64,000 nucleotides of DNA from Nitrospirota bacterium (GTDB lineage Bacteria > Nitrospirota > Thermodesulfovibrionia > Thermodesulfovibrionales > Dissulfurispiraceae), in the NCBI GenBank assembly GCA_963710375.1, contig CAVPZX010000005.1, positions 384,001 to 448,000 on the forward strand, written 5' to 3'. This document shows, in pieces, positions 38,241 to 64,000 of the stretch (positions are counted from its first letter, which is position 1; the number at the start of each line of letters is the position of its first letter). The translations under genes and the position numbers were made by a program. Under the pieces are notes generated by a model. That model saw only the letters and a program-made list of their open reading frames with translations. It did not search any database and was not told where the DNA came from.

Positions 38241-39725
38241 ATGAGTGATAAAAAAACAAAGTTTTTATTTTACTTTCTCACCCTCAACCTTAGCCTTAAC
38301 CTGTTTCTTGCCGGATGCACCGTTGGGCCGGACTTTGTCCGTCCCAATCCACCCGAGGTCAAAAGCTACACCCACGGTACAGACCTTGCCGCGACAATTC
38401 CTGCTGATGGTAAGGCCCAGCTTTTTGAACAGGGTGGCAGTGTCGCCGCAGACTGGTGGTGCCTTTTTAATTCCTCCAAGCTGGATGCTGTGATAAAGGA
38501 TGCCATCGCAGGCAACCAAACACTGCAGGCTGCGCAGGCCAGTTTGCGCCAGAGTCAGGATAATCTCCGGGCCGGTTACGGAGTCTTCTATCCACAGCTT
38601 AATGCGGGTTTTGATGCCACGCGTCAGAAGTCCTTACTTGCCAATTTGGGCGGCAGGCGAGTCTTCAGCATCTTCAACCTTTTTACACTCCAGGGGACTG
38701 TCAGTTATGCCCTCGATGTTTTCGGCGGAGAACGCCGCGCAGTGGAGAGTCTGGGAGCTCAGGTGGATTTTCAACGTTATGAGGTTAAAGGCACTTACCT
38801 CACCTTGTCCGGCAATATTGTAAACACTATCATTGCTCAGGCGGCCTATAGAGAACAGATTAAGGCTGCTGAACAAATCATCAGTATAGACAGGGAACAA
38901 GTCAGCATCTCCGAAGCGCAGTGGGAAGCCGGCACTGTCCCGTACTCAAGTGTGCTCAGCCTCCGCAGTCAGCTTGCCGCTGATGAGGCGACGCTCCCGC
39001 CGCTACGGCAGAAACTAAGCCAGACAGAGGATTTGCTTGCTACCCTGACAGGCCGCACACCGGCGGAGTATGTCCAGCCGCAAGTCGATTGGGCAGACCT
39101 GACGCTCCCGGTCAAACTGCCGTTAACCCTGACCTCGGAGTTGGTGCATCAGCGTCCTGATATTCTTGCTGCTGAGGCGCAGCTGCATAGCGCCGGAGCC
39201 GAAATCGGGGTAGCGACGGCAGCATTGTTCCCTAGTTTCACCTTGAGCGGAGCTTACGGAGTGAGCAACACCTCCTTTAGCGACCTCTTCAAAAATAGCA
39301 GCATATGGAGTCTTGGCTCAGGCGTTGTTACGCCGCTTTTCCATGGGGGAACTTTGTGGTACAATCGGCAAGCTGCCATTGAAGGCTATAATCAATCCCT
39401 GGCCAATTATCGCCAGACCGTTCTTAGCGCATTTGCCCAGGTTGCCGATACCCTCAGGGCATTGGAACATGATGCCGAGACCTTGCAGGCCCAGTCGCGG
39501 GCACTGAGTACGTCGGAGGAAGCGCTCCGGCTGGTGCAGGCAAATTACCGGGCCGGCACAGCCAACTATTTGCAAGTGCTTCTTGCGGATGATCAGTACC
39601 ATCAAGCCAGGATCGGCTATCTCGGGGCATCGGCCCAGCGGTTCCAGGACACTGTCGCACTATTTGTTGCCCTGGGTGGCGGTTGGTGGAATGACGCGGA
39701 GCAGTCTAATTTAACCAAAAATTAA
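38241..39725 (+). CDS. Efflux outer-membrane lipoprotein (NodT/TolC family)
   Basis: LAGC lipobox, RPDILAAEAQL, LFVALGGGWW. Confidence 0.92.
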   Translation: MSDKKTKFLFYFLTLNLSLNLFLAGCTVGPDFVRPNPPEVKSYTHGTDLAATIPADGKAQLFEQGGSVAADWWCLFNSSKLDAVIKDAIAGNQTLQAAQASLRQSQDNLRAGYGVFYPQLNAGFDATRQKSLLANLGGRRVFSIFNLFTLQGTVSYALDVFGGERRAVESLGAQVDFQRYEVKGTYLTLSGNIVNTIIAQAAYREQIKAAEQIISIDREQVSISEAQWEAGTVPYSSVLSLRSQLAADEATLPPLRQKLSQTEDLLATLTGRTPAEYVQPQVDWADLTLPVKLPLTLTSELVHQRPDILAAEAQLHSAGAEIGVATAALFPSFTLSGAYGVSNTSFSDLFKNSSIWSLGSGVVTPLFHGGTLWYNRQAAIEGYNQSLANYRQTVLSAFAQVADTLRALEHDAETLQAQSRALSTSEEALRLVQANYRAGTANYLQVLLADDQYHQARIGYLGASAQRFQDTVALFVALGGGWWNDAEQSNLTKN

Positions 39726-39808
39726 TTTGCCGTTAACACATCTGTAATAATTGCTCTATATTATAGTAAGTTATTTATTCGCAGACCCTAACTAGGAGGC
39801 CCATTATC

Positions 39809-41410
39809 ATGAGTTATAAAGTATTGGTAACCGATAAGATTAATGAAATTGCCGTGAAAATCCTGGAAAGCAGCTGTGAGGTAGATTATAAACCTGTTGT
39901 CAGTGCTGAAGAGCTTAAAGCCATCATTACAGACTACGACGCTTTAATGATTAGAAGCTCTTCAAAAATCACCAAAGACATAATCGCTGCCGCTGACAGG
40001 TTGAAAGTAGTTGGCAGGGCAGGTGTTGGAGTAGATAATGTCGATATTGACGCTGCCACAGACAAAGGAATAATTGTCATTAACTCACCTGAAGGCAATA
40101 CAGTATCAGCTGCTGAACATACGATAGCCATGATGCTGTCCATGACCAGGCATATCCCGGCAGCTGATGTTTCTATTAAGGAAGGCAGATGGGACAGGTC
40201 TAAGCTGACAGGTAGGGAGATCTTTAATAAAATATTAGGCGTAGTCGGTTTCGGGAAAGTTGGAAGCAGAGTGGCTTCTGCTGCCAGGGCAATGGGCATG
40301 AAAGTTTTGGTATATGATCCGTTTGTGGGCAAAGAGATCGTAGAAACGGCGGGCGCTTGTTATGTTGCATCGCTTGATGATATTTGGAAGTCGGCCGACT
40401 TTATCACATTGCATATTCCTAAAAACAAAGATACTCTTAATTTAATTAACAAAGACACAATAGCCAAGATGAAAAAAGGCGTAAAAATAATCAACTGCGC
40501 CAGGGGCGGAATAGTTAATGAGACTGATCTGGCGGAAGCGATTCAAAACGGTCATGTCGAAATGGCTGCTATTGACGTTTTTGATAAAGAACCTGTTGAA
40601 GGTTCGCCACTTTTGAAGATGGGGGACAAAGTTGTTCTCACCCCGCACCTGGGAGCCAGCACGGAAGAAGCACAAATAAATGTTGCCGTTGATGTTGCCG
40701 AGCAGATCAGGGATATGTCTCAGGGCCTGCCTGCAAGAAGCGCAGTTAATATCCCTTTCCTGAAGCCTGAAACACTTGAACCTGTAAAACACTATATGTC
40801 ACTTGCTGAGAACCTCGGATCCCTTGTGAGACAAGTTACAATCGGCGCTACACGGGAAATAGAAATAGTTGCCTGTGGCGAACTAGCCGGATTAGAAATC
40901 TCTCCGTTGGTAGTGGCAGTTACTAAAGGAGTTTTAGAGTGCAGCGGTGAGGGAGTTAATTATGTTAACGCTCCCAGGTTAGCTCAAAGAAGTGGAATAC
41001 ACTTCAAGAGATCGACGTCAACAGATTCAGAAAGCTATCTGGGCCTTTTAAAAGTGGTACTGACCACGGACAAAGAAACAAATAAGGCGACAGGTACCAT
41101 TATAGGCAATGATATTCCGAGAATTCTTGGAGTTAATGGTTATCACACAAGTATTGAGCCTGCCGTACATATGCTGGTTCTGCCTCATAAAGACAAACCA
41201 GGCATGGTTGCTCAGGTGGCAACGCTATTAAGTAAAGAGAACATTAACATATCGATGATGCAGGTAGGAAGAAAAGTTCGTGCACAGGCAGGCGGCGAAT
41301 CCATGATGATTTTAAACATTGATGAGCCTGTAACTGACGACATCCTTAAGCAATTACGTAAAATAGACGGCATTTATAATGCGAAATATGTTAACTTGAA
41401 GGCGAAATAA
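39809..41410 (+). CDS. serA: D-3-phosphoglycerate dehydrogenase (long form, ASB+ACT)
   Basis: GRAGVGVDNVD, GFGKVG, INCARGG, TPHLGAST; C-terminal ACT DKPGMV. Confidence 0.95.
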   Translation: MSYKVLVTDKINEIAVKILESSCEVDYKPVVSAEELKAIITDYDALMIRSSSKITKDIIAAADRLKVVGRAGVGVDNVDIDAATDKGIIVINSPEGNTVSAAEHTIAMMLSMTRHIPAADVSIKEGRWDRSKLTGREIFNKILGVVGFGKVGSRVASAARAMGMKVLVYDPFVGKEIVETAGACYVASLDDIWKSADFITLHIPKNKDTLNLINKDTIAKMKKGVKIINCARGGIVNETDLAEAIQNGHVEMAAIDVFDKEPVEGSPLLKMGDKVVLTPHLGASTEEAQINVAVDVAEQIRDMSQGLPARSAVNIPFLKPETLEPVKHYMSLAENLGSLVRQVTIGATREIEIVACGELAGLEISPLVVAVTKGVLECSGEGVNYVNAPRLAQRSGIHFKRSTSTDSESYLGLLKVVLTTDKETNKATGTIIGNDIPRILGVNGYHTSIEPAVHMLVLPHKDKPGMVAQVATLLSKENINISMMQVGRKVRAQAGGESMMILNIDEPVTDDILKQLRKIDGIYNAKYVNLKAK

Positions 41411-49774: not shown

Positions 49775-49829
49775 AGGATAAAGCATAAATGTTACATAAA
49801 TGTTACGTCAGTGTTAAATATATATTACA
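49775..49829 (-). promoter_or_regulatory. Pho-box-like array and -10 upstream of pstS
   Basis: Minus-strand TGTAATA/TTTAACA/CGTAACA/TGTAACA at exact 11-bp spacing (+ starts 49823, 49812, 49801, 49790), then TATCCT. Confidence 0.8.
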
Positions 49830-49909: not shown

Positions 49910-50098
49910 TTAAATAAGCGGACATTTCTTATGCTGTTTACTCTTACAGTACTCCTGGAGTTGGAACAAACTTGGGACGTAAGGTATATCTCCTGCCTGA
50001 CAGGTGAAAATGATCCATTTAGTAAGATAGGGGCATTTCAGACGCCTGGTCTCAACTTTTGAAAATACACTTTCCCTTCTTGACGTGCTGGTTGGCAT
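49910..50098 (-). CDS. Small Cys4 protein, paralog 1 (CPY motif)
   Basis: C-x10-C-x17-C-x7-CP; same spacing pattern as 58969-59196 and 59338-59544; start uncertain. Confidence 0.7.
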   Translation of the reverse strand: MPTSTSRRESVFSKVETRRLKCPYLTKWIIFTCQAGDIPYVPSLFQLQEYCKSKQHKKCPLI

Positions 50099-50105
50099 TA
50101 CAATA

Positions 50106-50360
50106 TCACCCCATGCTGATTGTTGCGATTATCTCACTATCTGCCATCATTTTTTTCAGGTATTTCTCAATATCAAAATGATCAGGATCATATGTAATGA
50201 CTAGGCTTCCGGTAACCGGGTTGGCCCGGACATCTTTAACCCCCTCCGGTATGGGTATCTCTGCTAATTTTTTTAGTGTTGCAATAGAAAGCTTTTTTAT
50301 CACCGGCACTTGTACTCTGATACGTCCCGGAACATGGTGAACCACCCTATAGTTGATCAT
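50106..50360 (-). CDS. Stand-alone HMA2/CoBaHMA-like domain protein
   Basis: VVHHVPGRIRV...ANPVTGSLVITYD; no CxxC. Confidence 0.8.
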   Translation of the reverse strand: MINYRVVHHVPGRIRVQVPVIKKLSIATLKKLAEIPIPEGVKDVRANPVTGSLVITYDPDHFDIEKYLKKMMADSEIIATISMG

Positions 50361-50403
50361 TCAATCCACCTTTGTTAGGTTTCATTAATTAAATCATATT
50401 AAT

Positions 50404-50443
50404 TCTTACAAGATGATGAACTGTCAGTTACAACTTTGTGACA
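50404..50443 (-). promoter_or_regulatory. Pho-box-like array upstream of the HMA2/Cys4 pair
   Basis: + strand TCTTACA, GATGAAC, AGTTACA, TGTGACA at 50404/15/26/37. Confidence 0.65.
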
Positions 50444-50641
50444 TTTCAGCAAGGCAGGTTATAGAGTATAGGCCATAACTAATTGTTTTGCCATCGTTTG
50501 CCTTTGGCCTATAATCCATTACCGGCCTTTATGCAATGTAGGTATATAATGAAAGCTTTTTGTAGAATGCTTTTACATTTACATCTGACTAGTTTTATTA
50601 TACACTTTCATTAAAGACTGGCTCACGAGCGGGAGGACAAC

Positions 50642-50929
50642 ATGGCACTTTTTGATAATGGATTAAAGGGTAATATAGTTACAGGCCTCGCTGTCGGCAT
50701 TGGTGCGGCTCTATTTGCCCCTCAGGTGATTCCGGCACTGGCAGGTGTGGTAAAGCCGCTTGCAAAAGCCGCCATAAAGGGCAGCCTTGTTTTATATGAA
50801 AAAGGTAAAGAGGCTTTTGCAGAAGTAGGTGAAATGATGGAAGATATCGTTGCGGAAGTAAAGGCTGAAATGGCAGAATCACACAATGAGGCAGCCGGTA
50901 TCAGCCCCGACGATAAAACAGGCGCCTGA
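50642..50929 (+). CDS. FezA/DUF5132-like small membrane-associated protein
   Basis: GLAVGIG GxxxG segment, KPLAKAAIKG, EMMEDIVAEVKAE amphipathic helix. Confidence 0.75.
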   Translation: MALFDNGLKGNIVTGLAVGIGAALFAPQVIPALAGVVKPLAKAAIKGSLVLYEKGKEAFAEVGEMMEDIVAEVKAEMAESHNEAAGISPDDKTGA

Positions 50930-51417
50930 TGATTCCTGAAGCAATTGTATGCCACTCTTCACCTGGAAGATCAAGGGTTAAAGTGCCTTCCAGAAAAGGT
51001 GACGCCGCTTATTTCTCTAGCCTGAAGGACCATTTTGCTCATCTGGAGGGAGTCAAGGAGGTCGAAGCAAATGCCGTTACAGGCAGTGTTGTGTTCATGC
51101 ATGCTGCTGATTTAAAGGCAATTTCTACTTTTGCCGAAGATCATTCACTTTTCAGGCTCATTAAATTAGAGTCCGCGACGCCTGCTCTGTCCCGAAATGT
51201 GGTTAAATCATTCAGGGACTTTGATAAGAAAGTAAAAAAATTTACCGGCAACGAACTGGATGTCCCCGGAGTGGCTTTCCTGACGCTGCTGGGGTTAGGT
51301 ATATACGAAATCGGCAGGGGAAACTTTGCCGCACCTGCATGGTATACCGCTTTTTGGTATTCATTGAACATATTTCTGAAATCAGTGCCTCATACCACCG
51401 ATGAGGAGAACAAATAG
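50929..51417 (+). CDS. HMA2-domain membrane protein (FezC-like architecture)
   Basis: HSSPGRSRV...ANAVTGSV, then TM LLGLGIY and PAWYTAFWY. Confidence 0.75.
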   Translation: MIPEAIVCHSSPGRSRVKVPSRKGDAAYFSSLKDHFAHLEGVKEVEANAVTGSVVFMHAADLKAISTFAEDHSLFRLIKLESATPALSRNVVKSFRDFDKKVKKFTGNELDVPGVAFLTLLGLGIYEIGRGNFAAPAWYTAFWYSLNIFLKSVPHTTDEENK

Positions 51418-51496
51418 CGGAAGCCATGTAGTTAAACCGCTGCATGGCACATCAAGAAAAAAAACGTTAACAACAATCTAAAAGGGGGTTGCTATT

Positions 51497-52150
51497 ATGA
51501 CTAAGGGCGAGGCTAAGGCTAATTCAAGAGGGGCTGCCAATATTGGAGCAGCTGGAACAAAGGTGAAAGAGGGCATTGTAAGCAGCCTGAAAGGAATAAA
51601 CGAAATCGAGGCGGAAATCGTTAGTTTGGTGAGAAATACTGTCTCCAATGCGCTGAAGGCGACGGCATCGGTAGCCAGCGAGGGCGTGGTCATAACGAAG
51701 GATGTGGTAAAGGGCGCAATTCAGGCTACGGAAGAGGTCGGTACCGGATTGATTTTGAGCACTAAAAGTGTTGCCAAAGGAATTATAATGGGGGTCAGCG
51801 ATGTAGGCGGTGATGTGCTTAGTGTTGCCGGGCAGACTGTCAAGGGCGCTGTCAAAGGTGCTGCCGAAGTCGGTGCAGATGTCGCACTTGTTGCGAGAAG
51901 GGCTGTGGACGGTGTAATTGAAGCAACAAAAGAAATCGGAGGAAATGTTGAAGAGGCTGCCACAGTTGCCGTCGGAGGCGCAATAGAGGCCGCCGGATCT
52001 ATCGGCACTACTGCTGTGCATGCCGTGAAGGACATGCTTGTCGGCGTCGTTTCAGGAGTGAAAGAAGTTGCCGGCTCCGCGCTGCCGAAACCGCGTTCAT
52101 CCGCGGCGACTGAAGTAACGTCAAGGCACAGAACAAAAAGGGAAGAATAG
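51497..52150 (+). CDS. Gly/Ala/Val-rich protein with 22-aa amphipathic repeats
   Basis: VVKGAIQATEEVGTGLILSTKS / VAKGIIMGVSDVGGDVLSVAGQ / TVKGAVKGAAEVGADVALVARR / AVDGVIEATKEIGGNVEEAATV / AVGGAIEAAGSIGTTAVHAVKD. Confidence 0.8.
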   Translation: MTKGEAKANSRGAANIGAAGTKVKEGIVSSLKGINEIEAEIVSLVRNTVSNALKATASVASEGVVITKDVVKGAIQATEEVGTGLILSTKSVAKGIIMGVSDVGGDVLSVAGQTVKGAVKGAAEVGADVALVARRAVDGVIEATKEIGGNVEEAATVAVGGAIEAAGSIGTTAVHAVKDMLVGVVSGVKEVAGSALPKPRSSAATEVTSRHRTKREE

Positions 52151-52156
52151 CGGCAC

Positions 52157-55100
52157 GTGGTCCAGACAGTACACGCGACCATACCCGGCAGGGCCCGATA
52201 CAAGGTGGCCGGACTTTACCGTTCGGAATCGCTGAAAAACCACATTGAATCGGGCCTTTCAGACAGGGAAGGGATTAATCTTGTCTCTGTAAACACATTG
52301 ACCGGGAGCGTTCTCGTATATTACAATTCCATCGATACCCCCGAATACGTTGCCAATGTTATTCAAAATATAGTCCTCGAACATAAAGGCAACGGTTTCA
52401 AGCAGATTGAAGATACTGCTCCTCTGTCCGGCTCCCGGCTTCCTGCAGCGGAAAGCCGTATGCCCGAGACCGGGCTGTCTCCCGCCCCGGCTAAAGAGAT
52501 AAAAAGCAGGGGTAAAGTAAGAAGGCTTGTCAGCCATGCCGAGGACCAGACGGTTGAGGAATGGCATGCTGCCGAACCGTCCGCAATCCTTGAGCGGCTC
52601 GATACTGCAGCATCTACGGGACTTTCAACTGAGAGCGCACAAGCAAGGCTAAAAAAGTTTGGTCCCAATCTCCTGCCTGAATCCGTCCCGCGTTCGGGAT
52701 TGAGCATTCTTCTCGATCAATTCAACTCGATCCCAAATGCCCTGCTGGGCGTAGCAGCCGGTCTCTCTGTTCTTACGGGAGGTATAGCTGATGCAATCGT
52801 CATTGCCGGAGTAGTAGGGATTAATGCGGTCATAGGCTATGTAACGGAGAGCCAGGCGGAAAGAACCATCCACTCTCTCAAGAGTCTTGTCAGGCCCTCT
52901 GCGCTTGTAATAAGAGATAATATTTATAAAGAGGTCCCTGCTGAAGATGTGGTAATCGGCGACATTCTGGTACTCAGGCCCGGCAGCTATGTCGCTGCCG
53001 ACAGCAGAATGGTTGAAGCAACTCACCTGAGTGTTGATGAATCAGCGCTTACCGGGGAGAGTATGCCGGTCGTTAAGTCTACGGAAAGCATCGCAGCCCA
53101 CAATCTGCCGCTTGCCGACAGGGTCAATATGGCCTATATGGGGACCCTGGTGACCGGGGGACAGGGCTTTGCTGTAGTTGTAGCCACCGGAAAGTTTACG
53201 GAGATAGGGAAGATACAGGAACTCGTGGGAGCTGCAGAGTCGCCAGATACTCCTATGGAGCGTCAGCTTAGAAAAATGGGCACACAGCTCGTGCTTATCA
53301 GCGGAGCTGTCTGTGGTCTTGTTTTCATCATAGGACTGCTGAGGGGATATGGTTTCCTGCAGATGCTCAAAAGCTCGATCTCTTTAGCTGTCGCTGCTGT
53401 CCCCGAGGGGCTGCCGACAGTTGCAACTACGACCCTCTCACTGGGGATCAGGAATATGAGGAGGCATAAAGTCCTCATTCGCCATCTCAACGCAGTCGAA
53501 ACACTCGGCTCGGTACAGACCATATGCATGGATAAGACCGGTACCATAACCCTGAACAGGATGACGGTTGTGGCTGTCCATTCGGGGATGAAGAGAATAA
53601 AGGTGATGGACGGAAAATTTATGGCCGGCAGGGAGAACATTAACCCCTATACCTCTGACGAGTTCCTCAGGCTTATCCATATTGCAGTGCTCTGCAATGA
53701 ATCTGAAATCATCGTGAAAGAACATACAGCTCGAGATCACCGTGGGAAGCACTTACGATGAGAACGGAGAGGGGAAATATGTGCTGCGCGGTTCACCCAC
53801 CGAGAACGCCCTTATGCATATGGCTATTTGTGCAGGTGTTGACATAGTTCAACTAAGAAAGATGTTCCCGCTTCTCAAAATAGGCTACCGCTCTGAAAAC
53901 CGCAATTATATGGCAACCCATCATGACTACGGCGTCGAGGGCAAGATCATAGCGTTGAAAGGCAGCCCTACGGAAGTGCTGGCAATGTGCGATTGGTATA
54001 TAAAGGACGGCGAAAAGATTTTGATCTCCGATGATGACAGGCTTGCATTGGAAACAGAGAATGAGCGAATGGCTGGTGAAGCACTGCGAGTCCTTGCCTT
54101 TGCTTATCACCAGTCTGAAAATGGCAACGGCGCCGGGTCCGACATCACCAGAGGTTTTGTGTGGCTCGGCCTGGTCGGGATGGCAGACCCCACCAGAAAG
54201 GGAGTCAGGGAACTGATCGGCGTCTTCCACCGGGCCGGCATAGAAACAGTTATGATAACCGGAGACCAGACGCCTACGGCTTATGCCATCGGAAACGAGC
54301 TTGACCTGAGCAATGGAGAACAGCTCGAAATCCTGGATTCGACCCACCTTACCGATATAGAACCCGATGTCATGAAAGCGCTTGCCGAGCGTGTCCATGT
54401 TTTTGCCCGCGTCAGTCCTGCCCATAAGCTTCAAATAGTGCAGGCTCTTCAGAGTGCGGGGAAAGTAGTCGCAATGACCGGCGACGGCATTAATGACGGC
54501 CCTGCGCTCAAGGCTGCCGACATAGGCATTGCAATGGGGCATACAGGCACAGATGTAGCCCGTGAGGTGGCCGATATTGTGCTTGAGGACGATAATCTTG
54601 AGACCATGATCATCGCTGTAAGCCATGGACGCACTATTTATAACAATATTCGAAAATCAGTGCATTTTCTCCTGTCGACCAACCTCAGTGAAATTATGGT
54701 CATGTTTACGGCCATTGCCGGAGGCCTCGGTCAGCCGGTCAATGCCATGCAACTGCTTTGGATCAACCTCATATCAGATATATTCCCCGGACTGGCGCTG
54801 GCACTTGAACAGCCAGAACCCGATGTGCTCACCAAGCCGCCGCGCAACCCTGAGCACCCTATTATTATGAGCAGCGACTTTAAAAGGATAACTTTCGAAT
54901 CCGCAATGATGAGCGCTACTACTCTCGGCGCATATGGGTACGGCATTGCGCGGTACGGACGTGGAGCGCAGGCAGGGACAATGGCCTTTATGACTCTGAC
55001 AACGAGTCAGCTTCTGCACGCCATTAGCTGCCGTTCTGAAAAAATCAGTGTCTTTGACAAAGAGCGTCTCCCGTCCAACAGGTACCTTGATGCTGCTCTG

Positions 55101-55271
55101 GGAGGCTCATTTGCGCTGCAGGCTTTGACAGTGGCATTGCCCGGACTTAGAGGCCTGCTCGGAACAACAACTATCAATTTTATGGATGCCCTGGTGATCG
55201 CAGGAGGTTCTCTGCTCCCTCTGGTTGTCAATGAAGCTACCAAGAAAACTATGCGAGGTGAAGCTATATGA
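52157..55271 (+). CDS. P2A-type (Ca2+-like) P-type ATPase with N-terminal HMA2 domain; one apparent frameshift near 53715-53760
   Basis: HATIPGRARY N-domain; TGES, VPEGL, DKTGT in 52157-53761; KGSP, TGD, GDGIND, STNLSE, WINLISD in 53742-55271. Confidence 0.9.
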
Positions 55272-56455
55272 AAAAGGATTTCATGTTTACGTCCGAATCG
55301 GTAACAGAGGGACATCCCGACAAGCTCTGCGATCAGATTAGCGATGCCATCGTTGACCACTTTCTGCAGCAGGACCCGTACTCACGTGTTATCGCAGAAT
55401 GCGCTGTTTCGACGTCGATACTCTTCATAGCTGCAAGGTTTGCATCTGACGCACGTGTTGACTTCCCCTATATAGCACGTCAGGTAATATCTCAGGTTGG
55501 CTATGAACAGCATGAGTTTAACGGGAAAACATGCAGTATCCTTACGAGCCTCAAAGAATCACCCCGTGACGTGGACTGCTGTTTTGATGAACGGGAGTTG
55601 TCCGAGAGAGAAATCGACAATATCCCGGTCAAGAACCAGGTTACGGTTTTTGGTTTCGCATGTAATCAAACCCCCGCATTTATGCCGCTTCCCATATGGC
55701 TCGCTCATAAGCTTGCCAGACGGCTCACTTCGGCAAGACTTCAGAAGATACTGCCCTATCTTTCCCAGGACGGAAAAACCCAGGTGGGAGTTGAATTCAG
55801 GAACCGCGTTCCATACAGGATACACAGCTTAACGGTTATTGCAAGCCAGAATAAGCGCGGAGGCCCTGATCTGAAACAGTTGGGCGATGATATACGGGAA
55901 GCAATTATCGATAATGTCTTCCTTGATGAATCTATCAAGCCTGATAAAAATACCAGGATATTCGTTAATCCGGACGGCCCGTTTATCACCGGCGGCCCGT
56001 CAATCCATTCAGGGCTTACCGGCAGAAAAAATGCAATTGATACCTATGGGGAGTACTCTCGCCACAGCGGTGCAGCACTCAGCGGTAAGGACCCGATGAG
56101 AATTGACCGGGTCGGCGCGTATGCTGCGCGTTACGCGGCGAAGAATGTGATTGCGGCCGGGCTTGCCGAGGAGTGCGAAATCCAGCTCAGCTATTCCATA
56201 GGTCTTTCCCATCCTGTGAGCATTCAGGTAGAGACCTTTGGCACCGGCAAACTGCCGGACGCGATTATTGCCGATCTGGTTGAGAAGAATTTTGATTTCA
56301 GGCTTGCCGGAATTGTGAAACAGTTTAGTCTCAGGCGCCTGCCTGCTGCCATTAAAGGCGGTTTCTATCGGAAGCTTGCTGTCTATGGGCATGTCGGCAG
56401 AATGGATATAGGGTTGCCGTGGGAAGTCACTGATAAGGCCCACCTGCTGAAATAG
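55268..56455 (+). CDS. Divergent methionine adenosyltransferase (MetK) homolog
   Basis: FTSESVTEGHPDK, DGKTQV, GLTGRK and GKD retained; GAGDQG signature replaced by PVKNQV; start overlaps ATPase stop. Confidence 0.85.
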   Translation: MKKDFMFTSESVTEGHPDKLCDQISDAIVDHFLQQDPYSRVIAECAVSTSILFIAARFASDARVDFPYIARQVISQVGYEQHEFNGKTCSILTSLKESPRDVDCCFDERELSEREIDNIPVKNQVTVFGFACNQTPAFMPLPIWLAHKLARRLTSARLQKILPYLSQDGKTQVGVEFRNRVPYRIHSLTVIASQNKRGGPDLKQLGDDIREAIIDNVFLDESIKPDKNTRIFVNPDGPFITGGPSIHSGLTGRKNAIDTYGEYSRHSGAALSGKDPMRIDRVGAYAARYAAKNVIAAGLAEECEIQLSYSIGLSHPVSIQVETFGTGKLPDAIIADLVEKNFDFRLAGIVKQFSLRRLPAAIKGGFYRKLAVYGHVGRMDIGLPWEVTDKAHLLK

Positions 56456-56532
56456 CAGGCAGAGGCAAAGGTAGAGGTATAGATAGATAAACTCTACCTT
56501 TGCCTCTACCTCTGCCTCTGCCTTTGCTTTTC

Positions 56533-56588
56533 TGTAACTTAAAATTAATGTTCCTGTAAAACTACTTTAACCCTTTTCCCTGTAGAGT
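56533..56588 (+). promoter_or_regulatory. Pho-box-like array upstream of the ornithine-lipid genes
   Basis: TGTAACT, ATTAATG, TGTAAAA, TTTAACC at 56533/44/55/66; TAGAGT -10-like at 56583. Confidence 0.7.
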
Positions 56589-56621
56589 ATATAAATGTGC
56601 TTTATCGCAGGAGGGGTGATA

Positions 56622-57413
56622 ATGGGACAGAATCAAAGCACAGTTCTGAGCATGCGCAATGGTCACTTTATTGTAAAACTGGCTGAATATCACGAAGAAC
56701 TGGAAAACACACTCAAACTGCGTTTCGATATATTTAACAGGGAGATGAATGAGGGCCTAAAAAGCTCTTACGTCACCGGCATGGACATGGACAATTATGA
56801 TGACTACTGTGATCACCTCATTGTTGTCGATACCCGTTGTAACAAGGTGGTCGGGACTTATCGTCTGCTCCTGGGTTTTGTCGCAGAAAACAGTATCGGC
56901 TACTATTCGGAGGGCGAATTCGATATGTCCGCTATCAGGACTATCGGGGGCGATAAGCTGGAACTCGGCCGCTCCTGCGTCCACAAGGATTACAGGAATG
57001 CCGGTGTCATCAATCTGCTTTGGGCCGGCATAGCCCGGTACATAGAAATATATGGTATTCGCCATTTATTCGGCTGCGGCAGTCTGCATACCAGTGACCC
57101 TGAAGAAGTAGGCATGGTATACTCTTACATGAACACATTTCACCGGGCAGGCGACGAATATACGGTGTATCCTATGAAAAAGCTGCGCGAGGTACGCTTG
57201 GCCAGCATTGTGGACCGGAAAACCGCGTTCGATAAACTCCCGCCGCTTATCAAGGGATATCTGCGGCTCGGAGCGCTTATATGCGGAGAGCCGGCTTATG
57301 ACGACATATTCGGAACAACGGATCTCTTTTTGCTCCTGGAAACAGAAAAGCTCATCAGCCGCTATAAAAGGAGGTTTTTCCAGCAGCCAGACGAGACATT
57401 ATGCCGGGCATAA
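56622..57413 (+). CDS. OlsB-like GNAT N-acyltransferase (ornithine/amino lipid synthesis)
   Basis: DNYDDYCDHL, VVGTYRL, ELGRSCV, PPLIKGYLRLGA. Confidence 0.82.
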   Translation: MGQNQSTVLSMRNGHFIVKLAEYHEELENTLKLRFDIFNREMNEGLKSSYVTGMDMDNYDDYCDHLIVVDTRCNKVVGTYRLLLGFVAENSIGYYSEGEFDMSAIRTIGGDKLELGRSCVHKDYRNAGVINLLWAGIARYIEIYGIRHLFGCGSLHTSDPEEVGMVYSYMNTFHRAGDEYTVYPMKKLREVRLASIVDRKTAFDKLPPLIKGYLRLGALICGEPAYDDIFGTTDLFLLLETEKLISRYKRRFFQQPDETLCRA

Positions 57414-58201
57414 TAAAACTATTAAGATTATTCCTGATTCTTATACTAAATCTCGTGTTCCTTGTCTGCGGTTTTTTGATAACGGCAGCTTTTTTTATTG
57501 CTCCTGAAAAGAAAATGTACCTCCGTGCTCATGGAATGCGATGGTGGGCGCGAGTCGGCTGTTTTATCCTTGGTATCCATATTACTCCCACCGGCTCATA
57601 TAAACAAAACGATGTCTTCTTCATCGTGAGTAATCATTGCAGCTATCTGGATATACTCATCATAGGCGCTATAATGCCCTCGGTCTTCGTCTCAAAAAGC
57701 GAGGTGGCCTCGTGGGTCTTCCTGGGCAGGATGGTAAAGCTTGCAGGGACTGTTTTTGTCAACAGGGAATCCAAAACAGCTGCTGTCAGAGTATTGGAGG
57801 CTATTAAGGAGCGCCTCGAGAGCGGCATTAGTGTTGTGGTTTTCCCTGAGGGAACTACCAATAACGGACTCAACATCAGGGATTTCAAGAGCACCTTTTT
57901 CAAAGCACCCATAGACAGCAAGGTGCCTATTTTGCCGCTCAGTATTATATACTCCCATTTAAACGGGATGCCTGTGACACCCGGAACAATTGATGCCGTG
58001 GCCTGGCATTCAGATATGCAGTTTGTCCCTCATTTTTGGAACCTTCTGGGTTTCAGCCGGATTGATGCAAGGATTCATTTCAATCCACCGCTTTACCATT
58101 TCACGGAAGACAGAAAAACACTCTCTTCTTTTGTGTCAGGGAAGGTCAAGCACGGCCATAATCTTTTAATTAAGAATTACGAATCAGGAATTAGGAATTA
58201 G
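57401..58201 (+). CDS. OlsA/PlsC-like lysolipid O-acyltransferase
   Basis: NHCSYLD, FVNRE, FPEGT; overlaps the GNAT gene. Confidence 0.85.
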   Translation: MPGIIKLLRLFLILILNLVFLVCGFLITAAFFIAPEKKMYLRAHGMRWWARVGCFILGIHITPTGSYKQNDVFFIVSNHCSYLDILIIGAIMPSVFVSKSEVASWVFLGRMVKLAGTVFVNRESKTAAVRVLEAIKERLESGISVVVFPEGTTNNGLNIRDFKSTFFKAPIDSKVPILPLSIIYSHLNGMPVTPGTIDAVAWHSDMQFVPHFWNLLGFSRIDARIHFNPPLYHFTEDRKTLSSFVSGKVKHGHNLLIKNYESGIRN

Positions 58202-58247
58202 AGAAATAAATATTGATTATACAGCCAGGAGAGTTGTACCGGCGGAT

Positions 58248-58619
58248 TTATAATAATACAGCTAATAACGACAGTGCTGATCCTTCCAATGCTTCCTGGA
58301 CAAAAGCCCCCAATACCGCCCGGCCCACCAAATGTCCTGTTTTAGCGGCAGCGCTATGTATATACTGATCATTGGTGGCCGCCTTTGTCGTATCGAAATA
58401 ACCTTTCCGTTGTAATATGCTTATGATATCCTTATGGTTGGCCATCTTTGGATTATAGTTCACCAGCAGACTGCCGGTAGTAAGGTTAATATCGACCGTA
58501 GCAATCCCATTCATTGTACTTAATGCCTTTTTGAGTTCGTTAGCCACGTTTTCGTTCCTTTTTATCGACGGGCTTTTAATTCTGAGTCTCCCGGGCACAT
58601 TATGAATGTAATAACTCAT
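58248..58619 (-). CDS. HMA2/CoBaHMA-like domain protein with hydrophobic C-terminus
   Basis: YIHNVPGRLRI...INLTTGSLLVNYN; C-terminal GSALSLLAVLL. Confidence 0.8.
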   Translation of the reverse strand: MSYYIHNVPGRLRIKSPSIKRNENVANELKKALSTMNGIATVDINLTTGSLLVNYNPKMANHKDIISILQRKGYFDTTKAATNDQYIHSAAAKTGHLVGRAVLGAFVQEALEGSALSLLAVLL

Positions 58620-58911
58620 TGTATCCCTCCTTATATGTTTTCGTGAATGTCTTGCAAACCGGATATCCCGAACACCTGAATCGTAATACTTTATCTTCCC
58701 TTTTATATAAATGCATTATCTTTCCACACACAGGACATGACGGCCTGTCCCTGACTTCAAATCTCCCGGTACCATGAGTAAATTGCCTGCCGCATATAAG
58801 ACATAGAAACCTCTGTTTCCCTTGCCAAGTTTTACCATATTTATAAACAGCATCCAAATTACAGTGCGGACATTTTGCTTCAACTTTTTCTTTCGCCGCA
58901 TCTGTCGTCAT
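58600..58911 (-). CDS. Double zinc-ribbon protein (InsA-like ribbon + topoisomerase C4-like ribbon)
   Basis: CPHC...YKYGKTWQGKQRFLCLICGRQF and CPVCGKIM...RCSGYPVC. Confidence 0.75.
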   Translation of the reverse strand: MTTDAAKEKVEAKCPHCNLDAVYKYGKTWQGKQRFLCLICGRQFTHGTGRFEVRDRPSCPVCGKIMHLYKREDKVLRFRCSGYPVCKTFTKTYKEGYNELLHS

Positions 58912-58917
58912 ATAAAC

Positions 58918-58973
58918 ATTGTAATCAAATACCATTACAACAATATGACAGTCTGTGTTACCAACGAGTTAAA
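58918..58973 (-). promoter_or_regulatory. Pho-box-like array and TACAAT -10 upstream of the zinc-ribbon gene
   Basis: + strand CATTACA, TATGACA, TGTTACC, AGTTAAA at 58933/44/56/67. Confidence 0.65.
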
Positions 58974-59196
58974 TCCCGGAGCACTCGACCGACTTATACG
59001 TACCTCCATAGTCGACCATTTGCATTGAGCAGAAATAGACAGAACACGCTTCATGACGCCTGCTCATGCATATTCTTATGTTCACATCCGGCATATCATT
59101 GATAAGTTTGTTTACCACAAGGCACTGCGCACCTACTTCGCTTCCCTTGAGATACGGACAGATAGTAAGTCTTTCCATGTACATTTTGCTCTCCAT
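58969..59196 (-). CDS. Small Cys4 protein, paralog 2
   Basis: CPY motif, C-x11-C-x17-C-x7-C. Confidence 0.75.
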   Translation of the reverse strand: MESKMYMERLTICPYLKGSEVGAQCLVVNKLINDMPDVNIRICMSRRHEACSVYFCSMQMVDYGGTYKSVECSGI

Positions 59197-59205
59197 TTCA
59201 CTTGT

Positions 59206-59261
59206 ATAATAACAACTCTTGTGTTACAACAATATGAAAAGAATGTTACAATTCTGTAACA
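59206..59261 (-). promoter_or_regulatory. Pho-box-like array and TATTAT -10 upstream of Cys4 paralog 2
   Basis: + strand TGTTACA, TATGAAA, TGTTACA, TGTAACA at 59222/33/44/55. Confidence 0.72.
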
Positions 59262-59337
59262 ATTGACTAATAACTTACAGCTAATAAGTCATGGGCAAAA
59301 CAACATACTCTTTTACAACCTGTAACCCGGATATTCT

Positions 59338-59544
59338 TTACCTCCTTCGGAGGGTCCTGGCCAAAAAAATCGGACAATTGTCGTAATCTTCATTGTTGCA
59401 ATAGCCGGATCTTCTCCTGGTATCTATTGTCAATTGTGACAGAGAGGCTGCACATATGCCGTTGTCGTTATTGGAATATGGACAGCTATGTTCGCAGCCG
59501 GTAATTGTATGGCATCTTTCGCTCTGCGTTATAGATGTGTTCAT
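59338..59544 (-). CDS. Small Cys4 protein, paralog 3
   Basis: CPY motif, C-x9-C-x17-C-x7-CP; 17 bp downstream of the MCP. Confidence 0.75.
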   Translation of the reverse strand: MNTSITQSERCHTITGCEHSCPYSNNDNGICAASLSQLTIDTRRRSGYCNNEDYDNCPIFLARTLRRR

Positions 59545-59561: not shown

Positions 59562-61292
59562 TTACTCATTGACTCGTTCAAATGGTTTATTGCCATTGGA
59601 CCGTGTTTTGAATCCTGTTGACGAATTCCTTAGTTCATCAGCAATGCCGGTAAGGGCGTCAACCTCATGTGTCACTTCGACAGACATCATCTCCATTTCT
59701 TTTGCTATCGCTGACGTCTCCTCAATACTCCTGAGCACGTCTTCGGATACCGCTGTCTGCTGGTCAACTGCCGCGGCAATCTGAGTTATCTGATCACGTA
59801 CCTTGCGCACAGAGTCCACTATACTGGTCAGTGAAGCGCCCGCCTGTGTCATATAGTCTTTCGCTCCTGTAACTTCATCAGAAGCATCCCGCATGGATTT
59901 TGTTGTCTTCCTGGATTCTGACTGGACAGCGTGAATTTTTTCCGTAATCTCGGCGGTGGCCCTGATTGTCCGCTCGGCCAGCTTGCGCACTTCATCAGCA
60001 ACTACGGCAAATCCCCTCCCTTGCTCGCCGGCGCGGGCCGCTTCAATAGCTGCATTGAGTGCAAGAAGATTGGTTTGGTCGGCAATATCGTTTATGACGG
60101 TAGCTATATCCCCGATTTCGCTCACCCTGTTGTTAAGCCCCTCCATCATTGAAGCTGCCTCAACAGTTGAAACGTGCACCTTGCTTACCGTAGCAACTGC
60201 CCCGTCAATTACGCTCTTGCCCCTTTCAGCGGCGGACATGGTCTGTGCAGAGGTCTCAGATGCGGCTGTGGCGCCTGCCGCAATGTTGTTAATGGTCTGG
60301 CTCATCTCGCCGGCAGAGGTGGCGATGTGCGCTGCTTGGAGGGATTGGCTTTTTGCGCCGCCAGCCGTTTTTTCAGCTTCAGCCCTCAGCTTCTGTACTG
60401 TGGAGATCACCTTATTTTCCGAATCGAGCATGCCGCCTATCATTCCGTTAAATGAATGGATCATCTTGTTAACATCGCGGCTCAGAATCCCTATCTCATC
60501 TTTGCTGTCATATTCAACTGATGCGGTAAGATCGCCGCTGGCCACCTGTTCAACAGTTTCAGCAAGTTTGGTCAGCGGTTTAATTATGTCGTTGACTATA
60601 AGGTAGCCGAAAATTATTGCGAGCGCCACTCCGACTATAATACTCACAAAAGCTATGGTGCTCACTGTTGTAAACAGCGATTCCGAGTGTGCATATGTCT
60701 CTTTAGCTTCCTCGATGTGGAGGGCGATCAACTCGCCAAGTTTTTGCTCAATCGGCTCAATAGTGGGATTCAGTTCGTCGATAAAAAAGTCGCTGAGTTT
60801 CTGACGGTCTTCCTCTTGTAAACTGTCCTTTAATTTGTTCAGAGGCGCCTCCAGACCAACCTGGGTATTATTTGCGCTCGCGATATCAAACAGCGGTTGA
60901 GTCTCTGCTATCAGTTTCTTCTCACGTGCGGTGTGCTCCAGTTCGGTATAGGCCTTCCATTTTTCGGCGATCACCAACAGCGCCTTATCAACGTTCTTGC
61001 GTCCTTCCTGCCATAAAGACTTATCCCCTTCAATAGGGTTGTCCCTGATGCGCTGCACGGACTTGACGATATTTATTGCATACATGTCAGATATTTCCTG
61101 AAGATCTTTCAATGGCAGCACATTTTTTTTGTATACGATATCGGTGCCGGCTACGGTCTTTTGCATGCCTATGATACCGAGTGTGCCGATAGCGATCAAC
61201 AGCATCAGCATAAAAACGACGAGCGCCAGGAGACGGTAGCCGATCTTTACATTATCCAGAAAAACGGTCTTGTATTTTTTTTTGAAACTCAT
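59562..61292 (-). CDS. Methyl-accepting chemotaxis protein (4HB sensor, HAMP)
   Basis: Two TMs, [38 protein letters not shown]; start MSFKKK overlaps the GT stop (TAATG). Confidence 0.93.
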
Positions 61293-62518
61293 TATGCAAA
61301 GCGCTCTTTTATTGCATCTATAATCCTGTAGCGCAGGGACCAGAAACCGGTTTCCGGGCAGGGGGAGAGTATAGAATTTTTGCCGATACTGTACCTGTTG
61401 CCTCTCCAAACAACGGTGTTGCTGACAATCGGCACAGACCATATGAGCCCGATAAGAAGGTCTTTAAACGGGGCAAGCAAATAAAGAAAAGGATTATCCA
61501 GTTCGCTTCCGGTCTTTCTGCCCAGATAGAAGTCACCGGCCACCTTAAGTAGTGAAGTGAGAATTGCGAACGTGACGGTCAATTTAGTGCATTGCCAGAA
61601 TACAATCGGCAGCGCCGACATGAATACCGGGTTGCCTAATAGTTCGAATACATATTTCCCGCCGCCGAGTTTCCACCTGAGCTTGCCCCATCTCGTATGA
61701 CGGTTAAGGAACCGCCTTAGCCCCCAGTATTGATTTACATTTTGCACCATGTAGCCAGACAGCACCACTTTTTTGCCGCTCTTGCGCATTCTTTCCCCAA
61801 TGACATAATCCTCGGCAAGAATATCTTTTACCGCTTTGAGCCCGCCGATTGCCTCTAAATCCTTCTTGGACATCAGCATGGATTTCCCAACCACGCAGGG
61901 CATTCTCAAAAACTTATCGAGAAAGCATACGCTTCCCATAACAAAAGAGTTAAGATGCAGATTTTCAAATACTGCGCCCAGGGAACGGCCGCCGACACCT
62001 TTTATAATATTGCTTACCAACCCTATTTCACGGCCTTTGGCAGGATTCTCTATATGACTGGTTATTGCCCTGAGATACTTTTCATCAACCATGACATTGC
62101 TGTCGCTTATAAGGATATAGTCATACCTTGAAACTTTATACGCGGGCAGAAGATTATTGACTTTCGGATTAAGGCCGGAATTGGAATCTTCAACTATAAT
62201 GGTGATGTTTCTGTCAGGGCATTTTTCTCTTATTTTCCTCGCTACTTTGTAAGCAGGATCATTATGACTCTGGAGCGAGAATATGATCTCATATTCAGGA
62301 TAGTCCTGATTACAAAAGCTGAGAAGGTTGTCGTGCAAATTGTCATCCAATCCCTTAAGCGGTTTAAGAATCGAAACGGGAGGAAAAAGTCGGGGAAGGG
62401 CATGCCCTTCCCCGCAGTCACAGGGAGTGGAAAGATACGAGCGCACTGCCAATATTTGGAAGCCATACGCAATAAGACCTAAAAAAGTAAGAGAAGCAAA
62501 AAGCCAGAATATGCCCAT
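61292..62518 (-). CDS. GT21 ceramide-glucosyltransferase/HpnI-like glycosyltransferase
   Basis: [29 protein letters not shown]. Confidence 0.85.
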
Positions 62519-62543
62519 TACTCTCCCTCCATTAGTGTTTCAC

Positions 62544-63236
62544 TTAGTTTCTGAATAGGGTTATTGCAACCCCTTTGTTGTGTTTAATACATTGTTTCAC
62601 CGCTGCAGTATCTTTCTCGCAATTAAGCAGCGTTTTCCACGAATACAGGTGTCGTGCCTTATGGAAGTCGCTATTGGCAACATAGGGATACTTTTTCAGA
62701 CTTATAACATTGAAAACATCGTCTCTGTTTGCCACTTCCCATGCATCGATATATTTGGCATATTTCTCCCTGTTGTTCCAGAGGAACAGGGTGTCACGGC
62801 TCATGTCAGACATATAATGAGGGTGGCAGGCCACTATCAGAGCGTCCTGTTCCCTTGCCTCGGAAAAAATCTTCTCATAGTTCCAGGAGGCGGGAATAAA
62901 ATCCTTTATATCAATAAGCAGCAAGTGAGCAGATTTGTCGGAAGAGATATGATTTTTGCTGATTTCAACTCCTGGGATCACCAGCATCCCGTACTTGTCC
63001 AATGCTCTATCCGCCTCTTTCCTGATATGTTCCATATACTCGCCGAAATTGTCTTCCCTTACTGAAAGGTTGAAGCGCTGGGCAAACTTTCCTATGGAGT
63101 TGTCGCCACTCACTACATGGTCGGTAATTGCAATAACATCGAATGCCGCTTGTCCAAAAAGGTCGATGGTTCGTCTCAACTCCACGGAACCGTCAGAGTA
63201 TGTGGTGTGGATATGAAAATCACACAAAAGCATCAT
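62544..63236 (-). CDS. PHP-domain phosphoesterase
   Basis: DFHIHTTYSDG, AITDH, GVEIS, CHPH, NSDFH. Confidence 0.87.
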   Translation of the reverse strand: MMLLCDFHIHTTYSDGSVELRRTIDLFGQAAFDVIAITDHVVSGDNSIGKFAQRFNLSVREDNFGEYMEHIRKEADRALDKYGMLVIPGVEISKNHISSDKSAHLLLIDIKDFIPASWNYEKIFSEAREQDALIVACHPHYMSDMSRDTLFLWNNREKYAKYIDAWEVANRDDVFNVISLKKYPYVANSDFHKARHLYSWKTLLNCEKDTAAVKQCIKHNKGVAITLFRN

Positions 63237-63240
63237 ATAC

Positions 63241-63296
63241 ATATTAGTATTTCTTTGGTTACAGCATTATTAAGGGCGGATTAAGATTATGTTACG
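63241..63296 (-). promoter_or_regulatory. Pho-box-like array and TAATAT -10 upstream of the PHP-GT-MCP-Cys4 operon
   Basis: + strand GGTTACA, TATTAAG, GATTAAG, TGTTACG at 63257/68/79/90. Confidence 0.7.
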
Positions 63297-64000
63297 ATCT
63301 GCTTTTGATTATATAAGCGTAATATGCCGCGGCATTGGTGGGCTTGCGTTCCATTGTGTTGAAGTTAACCCGGTAGAGGCCGAACCTGGCATCGAGTCCC
63401 TGCAGCCATTCGTAGTTATCGATCAGAGACCAGTAGAAATAGCCCCTGACATCGATACCGTCATTGATGCTTTTTTCGAGTGCGTCAATATGCCTTTTCA
63501 TATATTTAATTTTTTTCTGTCCGTCGCGGGTTGCAATACCGTTCTCGGTAATGATCAGAGGCACATTAAGCTTTGAAGCGTATCTCAGGACCTTTTCGAG
63601 ACCGCGCGGATGTATTTCCCATCCCATATCGGTCAGTCCATATCCGTCAATGTCCCTGTTCCTCAGTTCAACTCCCATCTTCTTAAACGGATTAAACCGT
63701 ATATGCACGCGTGTATAATAGTTGACCCCAAAGAAGTCCAACTTGTTTTTAATGGGGACAGGAATATTTATTTCGTTTTTAAAAGGGAACTTTACCTTCA
63801 GAACGCCGGTCAAAAAAGCATCCAGCAGCGAATGGTTGTAAAAATACTTGGCGATTTTTGACAGAAGCCTGTCCAGCGGGTTGAACCGGTGCCATGGCGC
63901 CAGGGCCGCCATATTATGCGCCACGCTGACCATTGGTGTAATCCCGTGTTTTTTTGCCTGCTCATGAATAAGGTCGTATGCCTTTGCGTGGCAGACAAGT
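63292..64000 (-). CDS. Glycoside hydrolase family 1 (beta-glucosidase), 5' part outside window
   Basis: GVNYY, TDMGWEIHP, nucleophile ITENG, YWSLIDNYEW. Confidence 0.9.
   Translation of the reverse strand, partial: LVCHAKAYDLIHEQAKKHGITPMVSVAHNMAALAPWHRFNPLDRLLSKIAKYFYNHSLLDAFLTGVLKVKFPFKNEINIPVPIKNKLDFFGVNYYTRVHIRFNPFKKMGVELRNRDIDGYGLTDMGWEIHPRGLEKVLRYASKLNVPLIITENGIATRDGQKKIKYMKRHIDALEKSINDGIDVRGYFYWSLIDNYEWLQGLDARFGLYRVNFNTMERKPTNAAAYYAYIIKSRS

Follow-up and report, generated by a model that had tools for sequence, protein, structure and literature searches.

The window analysed here, a 64,000-nt stretch of a Nitrospirota genome to whose positions all unprefixed coordinates refer, carries on the forward strand a run of five genes (50642–56455) coding for a DUF5132 protein, an HMA_2 protein with transmembrane (TM) segments, a protein made of 22-residue helical repeats, an HMA_2-fused P2A-type ATPase and a paralog of the S-adenosylmethionine (SAM) synthase MetK. 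These five genes form a conserved operon, and the core represents a genuine, uncharacterised gene set occurring in several bacterial phyla. We tentatively propose that its products would remove Ca2+ from the cytoplasm, the probable destination being a ferrosome-like compartment, and that phosphate starvation may induce the operon indirectly, via a zinc-ribbon protein encoded nearby and a 16-bp element, named box 2, that precedes the operon. All the open reading frames (ORFs) described in an initial annotation of the window were found again in place; the double zinc-ribbon gene (58600–58935) and two genes similar to olsB and olsA (56595–58201) had been absent from it.

Conservation of the operon

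When GTDB genomes were scanned with the MetK paralog, 377 related stretches emerged, of which the best 80, many of them on truncated contigs, were kept. The carriers belong to the Nitrospirota, Thermodesulfobacteriota, Myxococcota, Planctomycetota (Brocadiales), Cyanobacteriota, Methylomirabilota and Acidobacteriota, the closest relatives of the organism being metagenome-assembled genomes (MAGs) of Nitrospirota, and the full set is present in a cultured strain, Desulforhabdus sp. TSK. The pump gene lies directly upstream of the paralog in 76 of the 77 loci scored, which represent six phyla, with a 4-nt overlap in 28, and the remaining one is at a contig end. Of the 80 loci, 61 contain the repeat protein, 55 contain DUF5132 and 39 the zinc-ribbon protein. 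When 151 Nitrospirota genomes were sampled evenly, the paralog turned up in 27, as did the zinc-ribbon gene (25 shared with the paralog), and DUF5132 in 28 (26 shared). The co-occurrence of these genes in other genomes, on which the initial annotation had made its proposal depend, is borne out by both surveys. DUF3562 is another common neighbour (34 of 80 loci, e.g., L059:12245-12532) and a box 2 target, but does not belong to the module of the window.

The P2A-type ATPase

In the window, the ATPase (52157–55271, forward strand) is split at about position 53730 into two ORFs, 52157–53761 and 53742–55271. Base 53732 is missing from the contigs of four out of four sequencing runs from two studies, one run possibly being the source sample, and a single intact ORF is seen in 71 of the 72 loci in which both halves are present. 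The gene is therefore a single one of about 1035 codons, and its frameshift is an assembly error; the possibility of a real pseudogene was rejected on the same evidence.

With regard to ion binding, a Glu in TM4, an Asn and a Glu in TM5, and an Asn and an Asp in TM6 are invariant in the 63 intact pumps, TM4 harbouring a PEGL motif, and a Ser in TM6 is shared by 57 of them. The positions are named after their counterparts in SERCA. The residues were aligned to the P2A pumps SPCA1 and LMCA1, which are the top sequence matches in the PDB (E-values of about 1e-76 to 1e-78) and with which the site II residues are shared, whereas the N-terminal HMA_2 domain, the Gln that takes the place of the acidic residue at the TM8 site-I position (54 of 63 pumps) and the translationally coupled MetK-fold neighbour set the present pump apart. 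The best family model is the P2A model TIGR01522, with 583–641 bits in all four intact proteins scored, all below its cut-off of 798 bits; the PMR1/SERCA equivalog models are largely eukaryotic. These scores and the TM8 Gln speak against a confident ion assignment, and the ion and the stoichiometry are uncertain because of them. Neither this pump nor the genome's two P1B/Kdp-type pumps contain the motifs D[Y/F]SCA and HNxxT, which define the P1B-6 ATPase FezB (excerpt of bioRxiv 10.1101/2020.01.10.902569). The genome encodes four P-type ATPases in all, of which no other is of the P2A type. The ATPase is P2A rather than P1B-6, as the initial annotation had it, and in view of its ion-site residues, its best model and the absence of P1B-6 motifs, Ca2+ is the likely substrate.

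Further sequence interruptions were noticed in the same genome (G000, with contigs C2, C3 and C5). The housekeeping metK (G000:C2:692512-693637), the gene of an Mg-ATPase (C5:86526-89184) and a paralog of the repeat-protein gene (C3:198688-199306) are also split by frameshifts, all probably assembly errors. A second spurious base in the window, at 58952, is absent from the contigs of two out of two runs and is intergenic.

The small proteins

The first gene of the operon (50642–50929, forward strand) codes for a small protein assigned to DUF5132 (PF17195; 63.6 bits for a Pfam cut-off of 25), with a conserved Gly/Ala-rich hydrophobic segment containing GxxxG/GxxxA motifs. HMA_2 (PF19991) is recognised above its cut-off in four proteins of the window: the second core protein (50929–51417, forward strand; 51.4 bits), which is conserved and carries C-terminal hydrophobic segments; the N-terminal 60 residues of the ATPase; the stand-alone domain HmaA (50106–50360, reverse strand; 37.9 bits); and HmaB (58248–58619, reverse strand; 51.3 bits), which ends in a hydrophobic tail. 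The DUF5132 and HMA2 identities proposed previously are in agreement with these matches. All four domains share a His followed by a PGRxR signature (H..PGRxR) and lack CxxC; with a His in beta0 and a basic beta1, they present the features by which CoBaHMA domains are defined (excerpt of PMC8890360), and PF19991 has been equated with CoBaHMA (excerpt of bioRxiv 10.1101/2024.07.07.602159). Two further stand-alone HMA_2 paralogs were noticed in the genome, at G000:C5:129442-129783, adjoining a nifH-nifD-nifK-like cluster, and at C2:629314-629646.

The third core gene (51497–52150, forward strand) codes for the 217-residue repeat protein, whose 22-residue period is significant (z 8.9) and whose predicted structure is all helical, with seven to eight helices (pLDDT 75.6). 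The protein matches no Pfam family, and a search of the Atlas returned none either; no PDB structure matches it at E ≤ 0.001, and designed helical repeats come closest. It nevertheless heads a large unnamed family, with 788 representatives at E ≤ 0.001. Single database proteins join the repeat domain to the start of the ATPase (P0001, P0002 and P0004) or to HMA-TM (P0016), and this set, which also includes P0021 and P0048, contains fusions with DUF2934 and with a receiver domain as well; some of the fusions may be read-through artefacts of assembly. A calcyanin-like fusion of HMA_2 to the repeat was considered and rejected, such fusions being rare (P0001, P0002, P0004 and P0016).

Three small Cys4 proteins are encoded on the reverse strand of the flanks, namely, Cys1 (49910–50098; downstream of hmaA and present in 17 of the 80 loci), Cys2 (58969–59196; first gene of a unit with the zinc-ribbon gene and hmaB) and Cys3 (59338–59544), and none of the three matches a Pfam family. 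They had been described as paralogs, which is clearly the case for Cys1 and Cys3 (profile hits, 12 of 18 and 18 of 19), whereas Cys2 is linked to them weakly (zero to one hit per test). Weak Cys4 paralogs are also located at G000:C5:467701-467799 and C2:52797-52919, each after a similar unnamed gene of about 110 codons.

Possible ferrosome-like compartment or plasma-membrane export

The parallel drawn in the initial annotation to ferrosome parts stands, since the fezABC clusters have the same three-part anatomy. They code for the GxxxG protein FezA, the P1B-6 ATPase FezB and FezC, an Arg-rich protein with TM segments, which together build lipid-bounded granules of Fe, P and O (excerpt of bioRxiv 10.1101/2020.01.10.902569). 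In both systems, one operon encodes a P-type ATPase whose N-terminus is rich in Arg, together with a small hydrophobic GxxxG protein and an Arg-rich, HMA-like membrane protein; both have RxR HMA-like proteins in soluble and membrane-bound forms, and both are found mostly in anaerobes. The likeness of DUF5132 to FezA is drawn from their anatomy. In contrast to ferrosomes, the pump is here of the P2A type, with PEGL and Ca-type residues in TM5 and TM6, a repeat protein and a MetK-fold partner are added, and the context consists of Pho and Mg/Mn genes instead of iron genes. Lacking the P1B-6 motifs, the module is not a ferrosome.

It is not a calcyanin either, but its parts list resembles the neighbourhood of ccyA in Microcystis, and to this extent the calcyanin-type setting invoked previously was appropriate. 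In M. aeruginosa PCC 7806, ccyA and cax have on their flanks DUF5132 and CoBaHMA genes that are partly co-expressed with them (excerpt of bioRxiv 10.1101/2024.07.07.602159). DUF5132, several PF19991 genes with the beta0 His and basic beta1, and a Ca transporter are shared by the two neighbourhoods, which differ in that a P2A ATPase here replaces the CAX exchanger, no (GlyZip)3 domain is present and carbonate transport genes do not recur. Calcyanins harbour three GlyZip units of about 50 residues with a central Gly-Pro (excerpt of PMC8890360), whereas the repeat protein, examined for such units, has 22-residue repeats, no Gly-Pro and three GxxxG; the idea of a calcyanin-type glycine zipper is hence not supported. 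A P-type Ca pump has been put forward for the inclusions of Achromatium, whereas none was found in magnetotactic bacteria that calcify (excerpt of PMC11773610), so that pumps of this class do not mark inclusions in general. The excerpt of a preprint on methanotrophs with intracellular amorphous calcium carbonate mentions neither an ATPase nor DUF5132. In full-text literature searches, judged by titles and the openings of abstracts, neither the operon, nor the MetK variant, nor the box was found described. The paper on the CoBaHMA family may already list fusions of this domain to P2A ATPases, and such a fusion, or the placing of DUF5132 among the Fez groups, may have been published already.

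The ion, the compartment and the regulatory cascade discussed below are inferred. In the proposed mechanism, the pump would clear Ca2+, perhaps also Mn2+, from the cytoplasm, and the ion would be held with phosphate in a small, ferrosome-like membrane compartment. DUF5132 and the HMA_2-TM protein, by analogy with FezA and FezC, would shape or target the membrane, the basic patches of HMA_2 may bind polyphosphate or an anionic lipid, and a scaffold role is possible for the repeat protein. If correct, the operon would provide a genetic handle on the storage or detoxification of Ca2+ and phosphate in anaerobes, and the ferrosome design would reach a second ion.

The strongest competitor, which we consider unlikely although it deserves attention, is a plasma-membrane Ca2+/Mn2+ export pump, with no compartment, which the small proteins and the MetK-fold protein would tune or stabilise. 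Several observations favour it or count against sequestration. This is the genome's single P2A pump. The targets of box 2 and the neighbours of the operon comprise ordinary cation transporters (Mg-ATPase, MgtC, YtaF/MntP, CorA in eight loci, MgtE in two, CDF in seven and an Na/Ca exchanger in one), and since the other box 2 targets are plasma-membrane transporters, simple export fits them equally well. Two cyanobacterial loci contain a minimal version, the pump and the paralog without membrane helpers, and the accessory set is accordingly not obligatory; the operon of one genome (G158) lacks the MetK paralog, and another genome (G027) has no repeat protein and neither the zinc-ribbon gene nor the box at its operon. 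Against export, ferrosomes are built by the same helper anatomy, and we know of no GxxxG or HMA-TM helper needed by ordinary P2A pumps such as LMCA1. We place sequestration slightly above export because the helpers are FezA/FezC-like and because of the ccyA/cax neighbourhood in Microcystis.

Pho-type arrays, box 2 and the zinc-ribbon protein

The matrix used to search for Pho-type arrays was trained exclusively on relatives, with the four-repeat arrays found in 10 of their pstS promoters, an array being called when the sense-strand score exceeded the 95th percentile of shuffled sequences. Four arrays were identified around the operon: one facing pstS (49790–49829, reverse strand; four repeats with an 11-bp period), which has the top score of the genome (39.7); one directed towards hmaA-cys1 (50404–50443, reverse strand; p of about 0.007 versus shuffles); one before the olsB-like gene (56533–56572, forward strand), whose score was reached by 0 of 300 shuffles; and one before the cys2-zinc-ribbon-hmaB unit (59222–59261, reverse strand), the third-best hit of the genome (31.7). 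In the window, neither the zinc-ribbon gene nor cys3 carries its own array, the former following the array-bearing cys2. Orthologous promoters carry the array in 17 of 21 cases for hmaA, 8 of 8 for olsB, 32 of 38 for the zinc-ribbon gene, 12 of 14 for cys2, 13 of 16 for cys3 and 6 of 6 for a PHP hydrolase gene. Across the genome, 21 arrays were found at period 11, compared with 0, 1, 2 and 1 at periods 9, 10, 12 and 13, and the matrix also retrieves a second pstS, phnC, two phosphoesterases, a glycosyltransferase and a YtaF/MntP gene. The genome encodes a PhoB-like regulator (267 bits, for a cut-off of 296) and ppk1, and the neighbours in the 80 loci include PhoB-type regulators (16), PhoH (11), PhoR (8) and PsiE (7). 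The best matches to a Fur consensus were no better than shuffles in all five intergenic regions examined, and Fur control was rejected. The flanks do bear a Pho rather than a Fur signature, as initially annotated, but direct Pho control of the core operon is not supported: none of the window's arrays faces it (p = 0.74), and a sense array precedes DUF5132 in just 7 of 55 promoters.

A different element, box 2, is found there instead (50539–50554, forward strand; TAGGTATATAATGAAA), agreeing at 14 of 16 positions with the consensus TAGGYAAGTAATGAAA. At least 14 positions are matched within 200 nt in 35 of 55 core promoters, for a background of 18 in 1384 random windows of 450 nt, and a -35-like hexamer begins exactly 7 nt past the box in 33 of 43 loci. 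The box also precedes stand-alone repeat-protein genes (L103, L109, L115, L145, L151 and L160) as well as DUF3562, DUF2934 and MgtC genes, and it is found reversed before Mg-ATPase (L080, L105, L107, L113 and L154) and YtaF/MntP genes. That box 2 is used in either orientation, at fixed distances, is reminiscent of monomeric activators of the MarA/SoxS kind. The alternative that box 2 is the ribosome-binding site and start of a leader peptide of the operon was discarded, since the downstream frames are unconserved and the ATG is missing in some copies; the reverse orientation at the Mg-ATPase and YtaF genes and the fixed spacing to -35 also rule it out. A short ORF starting with MKNQ precedes the Mg-ATPase gene (G000:C5, about 89180–89226, 15 codons; L154:1017-1202) and, by analogy with mgtL, possibly codes for a leader peptide.

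The candidate activator is the double zinc-ribbon protein (58600–58935, reverse strand), which is basic (net charge +9) and has eight invariant cysteines; its translation may begin at the second Met. It aligns to residues 3–78 of an IS6 transposase (hhalign 98%, E 2e-13), its second ribbon showing a weak match to topoisomerase I. Unlike the IS6/IS1-family transposases, whose N-terminal zinc fingers it resembles, it is stand-alone, lacks the catalytic DDE domain, and is Pho-boxed and in fixed synteny. The ends of two IS6 elements, compared with box 2 as a possible origin, show no resemblance to it. When the gene was sought in 50 whole genomes, corresponding to 50 of the 80 loci, 33 were positive and 17 negative; box 2 is present at the operon in 28 of the 33 positive versus 2 of the 17 negative genomes, and the exact pattern occurs anywhere in 22 of 33 versus 1 of 17, with 41 sites compared with 7 for a reversed control.

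PhoB would accordingly induce the flanking units, including that of the zinc-ribbon protein, which may bind box 2 and activate the pump operon together with MgtA-, MgtC- and YtaF/MntP-like genes, so that divalent cations would be rebalanced during high-affinity phosphate uptake. In Salmonella, MgtC couples phosphate uptake and Mg2+ homeostasis (excerpt of PMC7980370). Such a cascade, if true, would define a new family of transcription activators with a 16-bp site, joining phosphate starvation to divalent-cation homeostasis.

The match between gene and box has exceptions that argue against this cascade: the box is missing from five positive loci and present in two that are negative; G027, devoid of the zinc-ribbon gene, has a 15-of-16 box elsewhere; a looser 13-mer occurs in 25 of 27 positive but also in 38 of 124 negative genomes; and the exact hits in L104, L108, L116 and L139 are ribosome-binding-site plus ATG coincidences. 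Moreover, the genomes compared are kin and MAGs, and the consensus derives from the same loci. A rather improbable account, which overlaps with both the compartment and the export readings, builds on these exceptions, on the scarcity of sense Pho arrays at the core promoter and on the presence of box 2 at Mg-ATPase and MgtC genes. The core operon would belong to a regulon for low-Mg2+ divalent-cation stress under another box 2 activator, its Pho link coming from the neighbours only and the zinc-ribbon gene being a passenger. It is countered by the Pho arrays of the zinc-ribbon unit in most loci and by the joint loss of box and gene in the Geobacteraceae, Brocadiales, cyanobacteria, Desulfobaccales and G027, with their joint presence in the Nitrospirota, NC10, Acidobacteriota and several deltaproteobacterial lineages.

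The array before the olsB-like gene belongs to a Pho island extending beyond the core. The two genes at 56595–58201 (forward strand), found in 9–11 of the 80 loci, have OlsB and OlsA, involved in ornithine-lipid synthesis, as top NCBIfam matches, both below cut-off. Further on (61292–63933), genes coding for a GT21/HpnI-like glycosyltransferase, a PHP hydrolase and a GH1 protein, with a Pho-type array at about 63253–63296 before the PHP gene, are likely involved in the synthesis of phosphorus-free glycolipids. The adjoining of these Pho-boxed lipid genes would suit a quite improbable explanation, in which the operon takes part in membrane remodelling under phosphate starvation: HMA_2 would bind anionic phospholipids, which would be swapped for ornithine lipids and glycolipids, with recovery of their phosphate. 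Consistent with it, CoBaHMA has been hypothesised to bind anionic lipids (Gaschignard 2024, as related in an excerpt of a citing preprint). Yet lipid genes occur in just about 6–11 of the 80 loci, and the pump, which carries the residues of a cation site, is a poor match to the flippase model TIGR01652.

The MetK paralog

The last core gene (55268–56455, forward strand) overlaps the stop codon of the ATPase by 4 nt. Its product passes the cut-off of the MetK model TIGR01034 (376.6 bits), and the fold of methionine adenosyltransferase (MAT) is intact in the predicted structure (TM-scores of 0.87–0.89 versus MetK; PDB 1RG9/7R3B), residues 246–271 of the monomer model having low confidence. Using E. 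coli numbering, mapped via three canonical MetKs, H14, D16, K17, E42, K245, K265 and D271 are invariant in all 77 copies, and R244, D163 and K165 are kept in 76, 75 and 74 of them. Conversely, the methionine site carries the changes E55R (75 of 77), D238H (77 of 77) and K269R (77 of 77), D118N is found in 58 copies, F230 is retained in just 54, Q98 is replaced, in an alignment column that varies between aligners, and the GAGDQG motif has become a (R/K)NQV-type motif. K269 is taken here to bind methionine, and the roles of the residues other than E55, Q98, D163, F230 and D238 are likewise assumed. The latter five are SAM contacts in the E. coli MAT (excerpt of PMC8727953). The paralog keeps the metal and triphosphate residues with a rebuilt methionine pocket, and because of this rebuilding the description of the protein as an ordinary MetK variant is not supported. 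A long branch with 100/100 support divides 25 sampled paralogs from three canonical MetKs (28 of 81 alignment rows used), and a canonical metK is also present in 16 of the 17 carriers among 41 relatives.

These substitutions suggest that the paralog no longer binds methionine and that its more basic pocket suits tri- or polyphosphate, or another anion. In the proposed mechanism, it would make no SAM but would bind or hydrolyse tri- or polyphosphate beside the pump, as an input of phosphate status or for phosphate release. If so, it would represent an apparently undescribed enzyme family that is annotated wrongly as MetK everywhere. That the paralog is a spare SAM synthase, within a loose set of housekeeping-type genes, is very improbable: its intact fold and TIGR01034 score would allow it, but nearly all copies have lost the methionine contacts, they form a branch of their own in genomes that mostly possess metK as well, and only one methyltransferase was found among 58 neighbours scanned.

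A variant module is carried by the plasmid of Microvirga sp. VF16, a cultured alphaproteobacterium, where two DUF5132 genes, an HMA_2-P2A pump, two HMA_2-TM proteins, DUF445 and one or more CYTH genes are grouped (L192:6646-15708). The 18 kb examined contain no MetK paralog, and a CYTH gene lies just upstream. Since some CYTH proteins are tripolyphosphatases, the presence of one in a MetK-less module is suggestive only, being a single case.

The most complete version of the proposal, to which we give a low probability, is a Ca-phosphate organelle in which a ferrosome-type kit would be built on a P2A pump, with the MetK-fold protein as a tri- or polyphosphatase and a cascade from PhoB to a domesticated-transposase zinc ribbon that would also control Mg/Mn transport.

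Additional observation

Outside the module, a Pho-type array (39710–39753, score 18.2) precedes serA (39809–41410), coding for phosphoglycerate dehydrogenase, which suggests that serine synthesis, a phosphate-releasing pathway, may be under Pho control.

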